From assembly GCA_951406725.2 (NCBI GenBank), contig OX597814.1:195486001-195550000 (forward strand): a DNA stretch of 64,000 bases, read 5' to 3'. Origin of the DNA: Octopus vulgaris (lineage: Eukaryota). Made by a program: the position numbers and the translations under genes. Of this stretch, positions 3,295 to 64,000 are shown piece after piece (positions within the stretch are counted from its first letter, which is position 1; the number at the start of each line of letters is the position of its first letter). The notes beneath the pieces were generated by a model, which was not told where the DNA came from, made no database searches, and worked only from the letters and a program-made list of their open reading frames with translations.

Positions 3295-3353
<59 letters not shown>

Positions 3354-3879
3354 CAAAGTGGAGTTGTGGGGTACCGCACGAGTGGAATTATATACGAAAG
3401 AAGGTTTGAAAATGCAATTTAAAAGATGTTTATTTACTTTACCGGTTTCACTCTTTGGAAAAAGATTGTCAAAAGTAACATGTGGAAGTTTGGTTGCGTT
3501 AATTATTGGTTGTTGCAAATTGCTACATTACATATATATATACAGTCTTTGGTAACAGGGACATGTTAAGGACATAAAAAAGTTCAACAAGTTCCTTAAA
3601 ATATTGGGCAAAAAAGATTACATAAATAATCGTTCTCAAGGACATACTTAAGATAGTTTCCAGAAGGAATTGATATTGGTACTGTATCTGTATATTCAAA
3701 CATGCACAGAATATTGGTTGACACAGAGTACTATAATCCATATAAATATACAGTTTTGGTGACTTTCGTATATATATATATATATATATACTTATTCTAT
3801 CGTGCAGGCGCAGTGTGTAAGCATACGTACCTAAGTTAATTTACACACAGACATACCCTACTAAAAAAACATAAGAGTT

Positions 3880-22994: not shown

Positions 22995-23680
22995 AGGCCC
23001 GTATGTGATGCTGAAGTAGAACGATTTGAAACCGAACGCTGGAGACTGCATGAAGAGAAGCGGAGACGTCACTATCAATACTCTAAGGATGATATCCGGG
23101 GTCGCTTTCAGTGCCCTAACTGCTACAGAATCTGTATATCTCATATCAGTCTTGTCAGTTACATCTGCTACCTATTTCTTTACTACCCATAAGGGGCTAA
23201 ACACAGAGAGGACAAACAAGGACAGAAAAACGGATTAAATCGATTATATCGACCCCAGTGCGTAACTGGTACTTAATTTATCGACCCCGAAAGGATGAAA
23301 GGCAAAGTCGACCTCGGCGGAATTTGAACTCACAACGTAACGGCAGACGAAATACTTATTTCTTTACTACTCACAGGGGTCTAAACACAGAGAGGACAAA
23401 CAAGGACAGAAAAACGGATTAAGTCGATTATATCGACCCCAGTGCGTAACTGGTACTTAATTTATCGACCCCGAAAGGATGAAAGGCAAGGTCGACCTTG
23501 GTGGAATTTTAACTCAGAACGTAAGGGCGGACGAAATACGGCTACGCATTTCGCCCGGCGTGCTAACGTTTGTACCATCTCACCGCCCTCAGTCACATCT
23601 GCTACCATGAATGACAATGTGCCAGAAAGGGAGAAACATGGATGTTGTTGATCGACGCTGTCGTTACCTTTGATGGGGCC
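22995..23680 (+). mobile_element. RTE-like LINE 3' end (C-terminal zinc knuckle), split by a SINE multimer
   Basis: FETERWRLHEEKRRR..FQCPNCYRICISHISLVS.I..H resembles the RTE ORF2 end (CxxC..SRIGLxSHxRxH); second copy at 38390-38620 (-). Confidence 0.65.
23173..23589 (-). mobile_element. Tandem family A SINE dimer with a single TSD
   Basis: Two units; 17-bp TSD CAGT(T/C)ACATCTGCTACC at 23156-23172 and 23590-23606. Confidence 0.9.
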
Positions 23681-41327: not shown

Positions 41328-41644
41328 TATATGTTTGCGAAGGCTTGGCAGGCACCTCAGCTAGCAGGACTTACTACCCTAGACTGATGACGAGCAAGAC
41401 TCAGAAACATGTCATGTCTCTGGATGCAGTCCTAGCTGGTGGGGGTGCTTGTCTCCCCTTCGCAAATATAAGGACACAGGAAATGTATCAAAGCCGGCAG
41501 AAAGCGTCGATGCTTCCTAGGGCTAAATAGCGGTGGTGTGATTCCCTTTACGGGACTGTCACGTTGAGTTGACAGTATACAGCCACTCTATCGCTACACC
41601 ACCGCTCATATCTCTCTGAGACATTTAGAAATTTAATATTTCTA

Positions 41645-41648
<4 letters not shown>
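41328..41648 (+). mobile_element. Retrozyme-like element: rod-shaped RNA with an apical hammerhead, in (TA)n
   Basis: Nested helices TTTGCGAAGG/CCTTCGCAAA, GCAGGCACC/GGTGCTTGT, CAGCTAG/CTAGCTG and AGGACT/AGTCCT enclose the hammerhead; second hairpin AGCGGTGGTGT/ACACCACCGCT. Confidence 0.65.
41379..41423 (+). ncRNA. Type I hammerhead ribozyme, intact core
   Basis: CUAGA-CUGAUGA-C-GAG-CAAGA-CUC-A-GAAACAU-GUC-AUGU-C-UCUGG; predicted cleavage after C41418. Confidence 0.8.
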
Positions 41649-41712
<64 letters not shown>

Positions 41713-46622: not shown

Positions 46623-47051
46623 GAGGGGCGCATGCAGCCATTCATAACCTCATTGTTATATAATCATCTCAGTCATATTCGTTTTATGTATTGTCCCCTT
46701 TGTGGTGTCCTGTCTGTCCTTGTTTGTCACCTCTATTTTGGGCCCTTGTGGCTAATAAAGAAACCGAGGGGCGCATGCAGCCATTCATAACCTCATTGTT
46801 ATATAATCATCTCAGTCATATTCGTTTTATGTATTGTCCCCTCTGTGGTGTCCTGTCTGTCCTTGTTTGTCACCTCTATTTTGGGCCCTTGTGGCTAATA
46901 AAGAAACCGAGGGGCGCATGCAGCCATTCATAACCTCATTGTTATATAATCATCTCAGTCATATTCGTTTTATGTATTGTCCCCTCTGTGGTGTCCTGTC
47001 TGTCCTTGTTTGTCCCCCTCTATTTTGGGCCCTTGTGGCTAATAAAGAAAC
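46623..47051 (+). repeat. Three tandem 143-bp units ending in the family A SINE tail and AATAAA
   Basis: Unit starts at 46623, 46766 and 46909; near-identical copies. Confidence 0.95.
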
Positions 47052-48683: not shown

Positions 48684-49270
48684 GGCAGTCAGCTGGCAGA
48701 AACGTTAGCACGCCGGGCGAAATGCTTAGCAGTATTTCGTCTGCCGTTACGTTCTGAGTTCAAATTCCGCCGAGGTCGACTTTGCCTTTCATCCTTTCGA
48801 GGTCGATAAATTAAGTAACCAGTTACACACTGGGGTCAATATAATCGACTTAAAAACTTTGTCTGTCCTTGTTTGTTCTCTCTGTGTTTAGCCCCTTGTG
48901 GGTAGTAAAGAAATAGGTATTTCGTCTGCCGCTACGTTCTGAGTTCAAATTCTGCCGAGGTCGATTTTGTCTTTCATCCTTTCGGGGTCGATTAAATAAG
49001 TACCAGTTATGCACTGGGGTCGATATAATCGACTTAATCCATTTGTCTGCCCTTGTTTGTCCTCTCTGTGTTTAGCCCTTTGTGGGTAGTAAAGAAATAG
49101 GTATTTCTCTCGTCTTTACGTTCTGAGTTCAAATTCCGCCGAGGTCGACTTTGCCTTTCATCCTGTCGGGTTCGATTAATTAAGTACCACTTACGCACTG
49201 GGGTCGATATAATCGACTTAATCCCTTCCTCCAAAATTGAAGCCTTATGTTTCCAGTAGAAAGGATTATT
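48684..49270 (+). mobile_element. Tandem family A SINE trimer with a single TSD
   Basis: Head plus three core units; TTGTGTCTAGTGGA duplicated on both sides. Confidence 0.9.
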
Positions 49271-52509: not shown

Positions 52510-52921
52510 CCTATTTCTTTACACAAGGGGCTAAACACAGAGGGGACAAACAAGGACAGACAAACGGATTAAGTCGATTATATCGACCCCAGTGCGTAAC
52601 TGCTACTTATTTAATCGACCCTGAAAGGATGACAGGCAAAGTCGACCTCGGCGGAATTTGAACTCAGAACGTAGCGGCTGACGAAATACCTATTTCTTTA
52701 CTACCCACAAGGGGCTAAACACAGAGAGGACAAACAAGGACAGACAAACGGATTGAGTCGATTATATCGATCCCAGTGCGTAAATGGTATTTATTTAATC
52801 GACCCCGAAAGGATGAAAGGCAAAGTCGACCTCGGCGGATTTTGAACTCAGAACGTAACGGCAGACGAAATACGGCTACGCATTTCGCCCGGCGTGCTAA
52901 CGTTTCTGTCAGCTCACCGCC
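52510..52921 (-). mobile_element. Tandem family A SINE dimer with a single TSD
   Basis: TSD TGATCACATAGTC(G/A)TACCT on both sides. Confidence 0.9.
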
Positions 52922-61610: not shown

Positions 61611-61840
61611 TTTTTTTTATAGTATATATGTATGTGTGTGTATGAGTGAGGGTGTGTGCGAACTTGTTGGTGGATTTCTTAAAAGATGTACAACTATGGA
61701 AGGCATTGCATAAATGGATCTTATTACAGGTGACCTTTATGTGTTTGTATGTTTGTATGTATGTATGCTTGTATGTGTGTGTGTATGTAAGTATGCATTT
61801 ATATAGAGTAGGGGTACGTATGTATATGTGATTCATATAT

Positions 61841-62256
61841 ATTTCTTTATTGCCTACAAGGGGATAAACATAGAGGGGACAAACAAGGACAGACAAACGG
61901 ATTAAGTCGATTATATCGACCCCAGTGCGTAACTGGTACTTTATTTATCGACCCCGAAAGGATGAAAGGCAAAGTCGACCTCGGCGGAATTTGAACTCAG
62001 AACGTAACGACATACGAAATACCTATTTCTTTACTACCCACAAGGGGCTAAACACAAAGAGGACAAACAAGGACAGACAAACGGATTAAGTCGATTATAT
62101 CGACCCCAGTGCGTAACTGGTACTTTATTTATCGACCCCGAAAGGATGAAAGGCAAAGTCGACCTCGGCGGAATTTGAACTCAGAACGTAACGACAGACG
62201 AAATACAGCTAAGCATTTCGCCCGGCGCGCTAACGTGTCTGCCAGCTCGCCGCCTT
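61841..62256 (-). mobile_element. Tandem family A SINE dimer with a single TSD
   Basis: TATATGTGATT(C/T)ATATA on both sides. Confidence 0.9.
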
Positions 62257-62939
62257 ATATGTGATTTATATAGTTAGTGTATGTCAGTTCCTAAAGGTAT
62301 TTCACATTCTTTCACATAAACCAATGTACTATTACGCATGTCACTTCAGCAACTCATTTATAGCTCCTCCCACTGACACTGTTTTTAACTCCGCCTACTC
62401 TTTCAGATTTTATCTTCTTTAACATCTAATTATCTCTTCGTTTCTAAATGTTTAACTCGATTCTGATATTCCATCAAATTTATTTTTTAGTTCTGGTTAA
62501 TATACTGTTGTCAATTAAAACTAGAAAATAATTACAGTAATGATCTAAACGTTAATTAACCTCAATGATGATCACGTGTGATCAACCACAATGAGATATT
62601 TCTTTAACAGAGTACTTTGCTGTCTCTTCATATTTGCCTTGTAATTATTTGAAACTAACATAAAATTACTAATCTGACTCATCAACGGCTGTGAATTTAA
62701 CCAAACAAATATTATTTAGATTAAAGTTTATTTTCTTTTTTGCAGTAGATTATTTAAATTATAATTTTAAATTGATAAATGCTAGAGCGCTTTCAGGAGG
62801 TGACGCACATACAAACTATGTGTGCATATATATATATATATATATATACAGATAGATATTTATACATATATATACATATATATATACATATACATACATG
62901 CATATATACACCCACACACAAACACACACACATATACAT

Positions 62940-62976
<37 letters not shown>

Positions 62977-62986
62977 CATATATATA

Positions 62987-63121
62987 TTTCTGTGGAACGG
63001 CGTAGGCTCGAAACGTTAAAGACTTTTTCAACTCCCGAGCGTTATACTAATACATCTGTTTGTTTTCTACACCACCTGTCTTTGTCTTTAGTTTTTTTTT
63101 TTTTTTTTGTGAATTCTCTCT
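62987..63121 (+). mobile_element. Short hammerhead-bearing repeat, family E2 (degenerate)
   Basis: UUU-CUGUGGA-A-CGGC-GUAG-GCUC-GAAAC-GUU-AAA. Confidence 0.55.
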
Positions 63122-63294
63122 ATATATAACATAAGGGACTAAAGCCATCTGAATATGGCTAGGGACAGGGCAGGGTGGTGGGGGTGTTACTGTTGCATTT
63201 AGCCCCAGGCGAACATCGACGTCGCTAGATAGGCTTGACACCGTCACGGTGACCTTTAACCTGCAAAGGGAGATAATTCCCCGATGAAGCGGAA

Positions 63295-63346
63295 ACCACA
63301 CACGGACCATGGTTTCAAGGTGTATTGCCTATCGTCAACGTGTGGT
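63295..63346 (-). ncRNA. Type I hammerhead ribozyme (C3U core variant)
   Basis: CACACG-UUGACGA-U-AGG-CAAUACA-CCU-U-GAAAC-CAUG-GUC-CGUGUG; predicted cleavage between 63305 and 63304. Confidence 0.75.
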
Positions 63347-63911
63347 AGGCCTCCGCTTCCTCGACGAAATCTCACTCTGCAGGTTATTCATATATAGATT
63401 TTCAAGCAAAATACATTTGCTGATTTCGAAAATCTGTTCGACAGCAATAATAATTCTCTAAAAGAGATATAGACAGTAACTGCTCGATAACATAAGGGAC
63501 TAAAGCCATCTGAATATGGCTAGGGACAGGGCAGGGTGGTGGGGGTGTTACTGTTGCATTTAGCCCCAGGCGGACATCGACGTCGCTAGATAGGCTTGAC
63601 ACCTTCACGGTGTCCTTTAACCTGCAAAGGGAGATAATTCCCCGATGAAGCGGAAACCACAAGCCTATCTAGCGACGTCGATGTTCGCCTGGGGCTAAAT
63701 GCAACAGTAACACCCCCACCACCCTGCCCTGTCCCTAGCCATATTCAGATGGCTTTAGTCCCTTATGTTATCGAGCAGTTACTGTCTATATCTCTTTTAG
63801 AAAATTATTATTGCTGTCGAACAGATTTTCGAAATCAGCAAATGTATTTTGCTTGAAAATCTATATATGAATAACCTGCAGAGTGAGATTTCGTCGAGGA
63901 AGCGGAGGCCT

Positions 63912-63963
63912 ACCACACGTTGACGATAGGCAATACACCTTGAAACCATGGTCCGTGTGTGGT
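63912..63963 (+). ncRNA. Type I hammerhead ribozyme (identical copy)
   Basis: Same motif; predicted cleavage after C63953. Confidence 0.75.
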
Positions 63964-64000
63964 TTCCGCTTCATCGGGGAATTATCTCCCTTTGCAGGTT

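Follow-up and report, generated by a model that had tools for sequence, protein, structure and literature searches.

A candidate non-LTR retrozyme family in Octopus vulgaris with the insertion footprint of Penelope-like elements

What kind of element closes the 64,000-nucleotide stretch of Octopus vulgaris DNA analyzed here (the window), and how did it come to be inserted? The original prediction described near-identical 360-bp units starting at 63128 and 63488, followed from 63661 by an inverted, circularly permuted copy. The direct repeat is real, but its period is 361, and the second unit starts at 63489 and is a 173-bp fragment rather than a second full copy. The inversion likewise holds, from about 63660, whereas the supposed permutation is the second arm of one insertion, which continues past the window end to window-equivalent position 64175. 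The window therefore ends inside a single insertion, whose two arms stand head to head in a TA-rich target. Its parts are as follows.

63118..63127, no strand: CTCTATATAT, the target-site duplication on the left; its right counterpart starts at window-equivalent 64176, past the window end
63128..63488, minus strand: full 361-nt monomer of arm 1; the RNA sense is the minus strand, with a plain, tail-less 3' end at 63128
63299..63344, minus strand: type I hammerhead motif of arm 1, read from 63344 to 63299; predicted GUC cut between 63305 and 63304
63443..63488, minus strand: tail domain of 46 nt in its internal copy (unit 316-361), a predicted stem-loop between two inferred RT start sites
63489..63661, minus strand: second unit of arm 1, 5'-truncated, 173 bp (unit 1-173), without the hammerhead core
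63660..63661, no strand: head-to-head junction of the two 5'-truncated arms, with an overlap of about 2 nt
63660..63769, plus strand: truncated unit of arm 2 (unit 110 to 1)
63770..64000, plus strand: full monomer of arm 2, running on to window-equivalent 64133 and followed by a tail of 42 nt that reaches 64175, beyond the window end
63914-63959, plus strand: second hammerhead copy, in arm 2; core start at 63920, predicted cut after 63953

The insertion is bordered on both sides by the 10 bases CTCTATATAT, and the 42-nt tail of arm 2 directly abuts the right copy of this duplication. Because the hammerhead lies on the minus strand in arm 1 and on the plus strand in arm 2, the RNA 3' ends of both arms face outward and their truncated 5' ends meet. 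The tandem period is 361 at this locus, and subfamilies of 360 nt and 358 nt occur elsewhere in the genome. As had been predicted, the unit contains no credible coding ORF: its longest Met-started frame is 89 aa in the window's subfamily, and for the 360-nt subfamily the figure is 35 aa. GC content is below 50%, and the RNA is predicted to be strongly self-paired. We consider it likely that the locus is the insertion of a non-coding 361-nt retrozyme whose RNA self-cleaves and circularizes, and which is copied in trans by the RT-endonuclease of a Penelope-like element (PLE), probably one of the Neptune type. Judged from sequence, its relatives constitute a new family of non-LTR retrozymes that is very likely mobilized by PLEs.

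A hammerhead motif is present in each full unit. All of the elements named in the original prediction can be located in the window copy: stem I (CACACG/CGUGUG), stem II (AGG/CCU), a palindromic stem III (ACCAUGGU) and a GUC site, to which a GAAA can be added. The assignment to type I was right in its motif but not in its core, and it overlooked that, in the 63128 unit, the motif is read from the minus strand. The core reads UUGACGA, in which U3 replaces C3 to give a U3·G8 pair, and a U·U opposition occupies the base of stem II (10.1-11.1). Deviation at position 3 or 4 is general in the family, whose cores are UUGAYRA or CCGAYGA; CUGANGA accounts for only one of 100 among the matches listed. 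A search with Rfam hammerhead models, proposed earlier as a check, finds nothing in the window at the gathering threshold, and at E<=10 the region 62900-64000 yields a miRNA-type hairpin and other chance matches but no hammerhead. Rfam misses the ribozymes of this family because their cores carry UU or CC rather than CU. A type III hammerhead on the plus strand (CCGAUGA...GAAA) was also considered by eye and was dropped, being without a stem I.

The long rod proposed for the monomer folds beyond chance expectation. The linear RNA has a z of -5.85 on the sense strand and -4.34 on the antisense strand, and the circular monomer forms a rod of -117 kcal/mol (z -7.6, 30 shuffles). Stem I is formed in the predicted minimum-energy fold, and stems II and III are absent from it. 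Given this absence, the U3·G8 pair and the U·U opposition at 10.1-11.1, cleavage activity may be weak. Our literature search found no published measurement for a U3·G8 hammerhead core; a U4C change lowers activity in vitro, yet it supports viroid infectivity (PMC3088659). The modeled rod, with stems II and III unformed, also fits a monomer that is blocked and a dimer that would be cleaved through the palindromic stem III. In most subfamilies this stem has remained palindromic or can pair with itself (CAUG, CUAG, CG loops).

Pairing in the hammerhead was assessed in an alignment of related sequences, from which the structure itself was drawn and whose older rows were found by a pattern that fixes U3. 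Among 23 representatives reaching down to about 67% identity, 95.1% of stem cells are paired and 17 two-sided changes occur. None of 500 shuffles scores as high, and slid controls are 25-51% paired. The compensatory changes include C-G/U-A/U·G exchanges in stem I and C-G/U-A exchanges in stem III. These observations support a type I hammerhead that is under pairing constraint across subfamilies and for which self-cleavage is predicted.

The core itself varies in an ordered way. In a count of 140 copies from loci not chosen by core, C3 occurs 49 times (always with G8), U3·G8 79 times and U3-A8 11 times, and one copy is unalignable. The midpoint-rooted tree of 52 rows is ladder-like. On its older branches U3 is combined with A8 or G8; C3C4-G8 copies form one derived clade (support 100/97) nested among U3·G8 copies like those of the window. 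Read along this tree, the 3-8 core pair appears to go from U-A or U·G to C-G across the subfamilies, and some of the U3-A8 states may be products of CpG decay. The minimal hammerheads of Schistosoma PLEs (PMC4209133) share the U3-A8 core with the older octopus subfamilies, and stem III is palindromic in both. They differ from the octopus ribozymes, in which stem I is longer and stem II is shorter, and which form a series of U3-A8, U3·G8 and C3-G8 (the last with U4C) along a single lineage.

The family is large. A search with the unit in the 2.8-Gb genome (227 contigs) returned 1,311 candidates, of which 40 were scored. A 19-mer from the tail has 1,053 exact matches in the genome and its control has none. 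Two exact 17-mer patterns of the hammerhead have 934 matches for the U3U4 core and 1,242 for the C3C4 core, which sum to a copy number of at least 2,176 hammerheads. We examined 112 distinct loci: 39 best-scoring ones, from which four duplicates had been removed, 50 selected by their position on contig 1, and 23 chosen for long arrays or age. Two head-to-head arms are present at 84 of them. A tail of about 46 nt (unit 316-361) is found on exactly one arm at 81 of these 84 loci, on both arms or on neither at no locus, and three loci are rearranged. Only one of 14 older, diverged loci was scored as two-armed, and these align poorly to the window's unit. In the first two locus sets, two-arm loci have (TA)n on both flanks in 32 of 35 and 32 of 36 cases. 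At targets that are not purely TA, a duplication of about 10-12 bp can be recognized (for example, L001, L129, L200 and L103). The arms mostly overlap by 0-4 nt at their junctions, which differ among loci, and their outward 3' ends are fixed. This dispersal, with young copies and conserved hammerhead pairing, supports the view already taken in the original prediction, that of a recently active, non-coding tandem family resembling retrozymes.

Such a palindromic layout might arise at the DNA level, from a fold-back or MITE-like element or a satellite, or it might be an artefact of assembly. The outer ends do resemble inverted repeats, and gene conversion could homogenize arms of this kind. Assembly artefact, which had been raised as a concern from the start, is unlikely because more than 80 loci share the layout and have different junctions and target duplications. 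The ends are asymmetric, moreover, with the tail confined to one side in the 81 loci noted above, and 228 derived changes limited to single copies have escaped homogenization. At six loci each arm contains sequence that is missing from the other, so that neither arm can have been copied from its partner. We give scarcely any weight to this group of explanations, which is already largely refuted.

The footprint instead resembles that of PLEs. PLE insertions include partial tandems, an inverted 5'-truncated copy and a tail of 30-40 bp that is usually at one end, and their microsatellite targets have been tied to a CX2-5CxxC linker (Craig 2021, 10.1101/2021.04.23.441226). In vitro, a PLE protein cuts and extends both strands of its target, and the tail corresponds to the gap between two internal RT starts (Frangieh 2024, PMC11167929); the later steps of integration are left untested in that study. 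The octopus insertions match those of Neptune, Poseidon and Naiad elements in 5' truncation, partial tandems, inverted arm, one-end tail and (TA)n target, and in the placement of a hammerhead upstream of the RT start sites (10.1101/2021.04.23.441226, PMC11167929). The combination of an inverted arm, a one-sided tail, a (TA)n target and a duplication of 10-12 bp is the signature of PLE integration. The original prediction had drawn a link to Penelope and had overlooked this signature. Differences from the PLEs described in the same two sources are that the octopus family has no ORF, a tail of about 46 nt rather than 30-40, and a whole unit of 361 nt.

Candidate enzymes are present in the genome. 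Intact young PLEs carry a 781-aa frame with an RT and, at the C terminus, a GIY-YIG domain, and a CxxxxCxxC linker can be read from the translation. These elements end in (TA)n, with or without a tail of their own of about 40 nt; L069 shows one of each. In the same PLE family (L067:768-4468, L071:1081-4781), an upstream ORF of about 470 aa overlaps the RT-EN frame in the -1 frame. The overlap contains a TTTTTTA heptamer in six of the 10 copies searched, which may indicate a programmed frameshift; canonical EN+ PLEs are described as having a single ORF (Craig 2021, 10.1101/2021.04.23.441226).

Might the units then be nothing more than pLTRs, truncated at the 5' end, of an autonomous PLE that was not sampled in its ORF-bearing form? 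PLE insertions have the same tail and inverted arm, and autonomous PLEs of this genome bear U3-A8 hammerheads in their pLTRs. However, the sequence upstream of a unit in the tandem arms is another unit, and an RT and GIY-YIG ORF between pLTRs, as in an autonomous EN+ PLE, is lacking. A permanent position next to a PLE ORF, which the original prediction had named as the mark of an ordinary pLTR, is not observed either. At the 89 loci of the first two sets, no arm continues into PLE coding sequence. PLE coding fragments near five of 50 second-set loci and four of 43 first-set loci are separate insertions, the nearest lying about 200 bp off, across the TA run at the outward end. Conversely, 40 GIY-YIG PLE loci, drawn from the 150 that were scored of 6,136 endonuclease candidates, include none with the unit as pLTR and none with a homologous tail at the 3' end. 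An origin as plain pLTRs is thus highly improbable.

Other repeats in and beyond the window were noted in the course of this work. A second hammerhead element lies in (TA)n at window positions 41335-41650 (plus strand); its core is the canonical CUGAUGA, and both its downstream domain and its tail are similar. It has 2,603 candidates genome-wide and a tandem period of about 354 bp, its best other copies are 88-92% identical, and it is likely an older sister retrozyme family. A solo pLTR-like piece at 3350-3530 (minus strand) contains a U3-A8 hammerhead, whose stem III is CCGG, and ends in a (TA)n run. Diverged relatives with the unit's downstream domain occur at L076:5640-5816 and L070:770-1060 and perhaps represent a third family. 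The L076 tail, which is 80% similar to that of the unit, was entertained as the tail of a partner PLE and rejected, since it belongs to a separate short insertion. Three 143-bp tandem copies with 98% identity are found within a SINE-like repeat at 46623-47051, where a relaxed scan detected no hammerhead. Four 184-bp tandem duplications of a SINE-like repeat are also present in the window (23169-23539, 48732-49224, 52522-52873 and 61840-62206).

If a PLE enzyme copies the retrozyme, its template could be a circle or a linear multimer. Derived alleles, polarized against the five nearest loci, were used to distinguish between these (100 of 112 loci usable). Forty-two are present in all copies at a locus (27 of them spanning both arms), six in some copies and 228 in one. 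At sites with three or more copies, all-copy alleles outnumber partial ones by 25 to 6. Alleles that look 'private' may, however, be those of sub-subfamilies missing from the sample, which would count against reading them as marks of one template. The most striking locus, L184 (G000:C1:31008000-31015000), has arms of nine and three units whose 14 segments show no differences in 4,194 bases, and it must therefore be very recent. Two alleles common to all 12 of its copies are absent from its neighbors. Units of matching rank in opposite arms are no closer to each other (0.0061) than unmatched ones (0.0048) or units of the same arm (0.0048).

Arms with more than one unit are common (115 of 196), the longest measures 3,270 nt, and nine units can be reached. 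The predicted cut site is crossed without a gap in 210 of 222 segments and shows no accumulation of arm ends (four of 168 ends are near it, with 5.6 expected). Repeated reading of one monomer circle is favored by these sequences as the best explanation of the all-copy alleles, the long arms and the uninterrupted cut site. Linear templates are probably used sometimes, as three alleles are rank-matched across arms and an end near the cut site is seen at three of the 28 one-arm loci, against an expectation of 0.9 (p 0.06). An early hint of a linear multimer template at L034 and L036 was lost in the larger allele test, and an apparent excess of odd rank-2 copies was gone once alleles were polarized (70/22,909 versus 86/24,086). 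Four of 24 runs, all of contigs that we guess to be RNA, were compared with the unit. The unit-to-unit join is found in all four, a self-closing 390-nt contig occurs in two of them and the C3C4 core in three; because this join also exists in genomic DNA, these contigs speak neither for nor against circles or expression.

An unlikely, though not negligible, alternative is that the family is a non-autonomous PLE derivative made from uncut linear multimers, with a hammerhead that is weak or a relict pLTR motif and with circles uninvolved. It accounts equally well for the tail and the two arms, and it would agree with the U3·G8 core of the window's young subfamily, with the three rank-matched alleles and with reports that PLE insertion in vitro is independent of hammerhead cleavage and is not impaired in hammerhead mutants (Frangieh 2024, PMC11167929). 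Yet ageing parent arrays should hand down unit-specific mosaics, contrary to the ratio of all-copy to partial alleles. Truncation at the 5' end alone would shorten arrays, whereas the most derived (C-G) clade has up to 12 units per locus. Nor would a relict motif be expected to keep its stems and 3-8 pair across about 30% divergence.

The preferred reading, copying of a circularized retrozyme by a PLE enzyme, can be laid out as a series of steps. Cleavage of tandem transcripts at the hammerhead, probably in a dimeric form made through the palindromic stem III, would release a monomer, which a host ligase would close into a circle. One PLE complex would then nick both target strands, and both could be primed on one shared circle, from two positions separated by about 46 nt and lying on either side of the stem-loop. 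Each RT would travel around the template for 0.1-9 turns, and the two 5'-truncated cDNAs would be joined with an overlap of zero to a few nucleotides. In its most specific form the proposal holds that each insertion is made by one PLE dimer priming both strands on a single circle, 46 nt apart, and that the core has crossed from U3-A8 through U3·G8 to C3-G8, with a better supply of circles lengthening the arrays. The C-G clade has longer arrays: C3 loci are richer in hammerheads than young U3 loci (90 in 29 versus 9 in 7, positional list, p 0.005) and than a score-picked U3 set (p 0.02), with small samples in both comparisons. This full form is tentative, and as a whole we rate it possible rather than probable.

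Several features that characterize retrozymes are found here: dispersed tandem monomers in the 150-450-bp range, a type I hammerhead per unit, no ORF or bounding LTRs, and a target duplication of more than 4 bp. Metazoan non-LTR retrozymes from corals, Mytilus (approximately 350-390 nt) and axolotl (Rtz_353) are likewise non-coding tandem monomers of the same size with less than 50% GC, type I hammerheads and self-paired RNA (PMC7229834). In the axolotl hammerhead HHR_Amex2, too, stem III has 2 bp and carries a tetraloop, and the basal position of stem II is a U·U. Unlike these retrozymes, the octopus family has UUGAYRA or CCGAYGA cores, and its two arms and PLE tail are not described in the available portions of that source. 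Vertebrate retrozymes have also been presented as PLE derivatives, with PLE-dependent mobilization and a pLTR origin proposed (bioRxiv 10.64898/2026.07.22.740005). That case rests on co-occurrence and pLTR homology, whereas the octopus case rests on the insertion footprint, with a parent pLTR not found among the 40 PLE loci. Of nine predicted Xenopus retrozyme dimers in the same preprint, eight failed to cleave and one cleaved. Cephalopod hammerheads are already on record, with 235 Rfam hammerhead_1 matches in giant squid (PMC6962438). Our literature search found no description of this family, nor of PLE tails or a two-arm footprint on retrozymes; supplements of PMC7229834, PMC4209133 and the bioRxiv preprint might list it. 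By the features tested, the family belongs to the metazoan non-LTR retrozymes and works like a PLE insertion, without being an autonomous PLE.

For animal retrozymes, the mobilizing enzyme and the circular template have been proposed from co-occurrence and homology (PMC7229834; bioRxiv 10.64898/2026.07.22.740005). The octopus family offers more than 1,000 short, young and fully readable insertion footprints with a PLE signature. Surveys that rely on Rfam may undercount hammerhead elements with UU or CC cores such as these. If it is true, double priming on one circle accounts at once for three features: the tandem units, the inversion of one arm and the restriction of the tail to one side. Since a 361-nt template and intact TA-targeting PLE ORFs are found in the same genome, an in vitro test of PLE insertion would be direct, and if the units are copied from one RNA circle, they would provide a small test system for how Penelope-type enzymes insert DNA.
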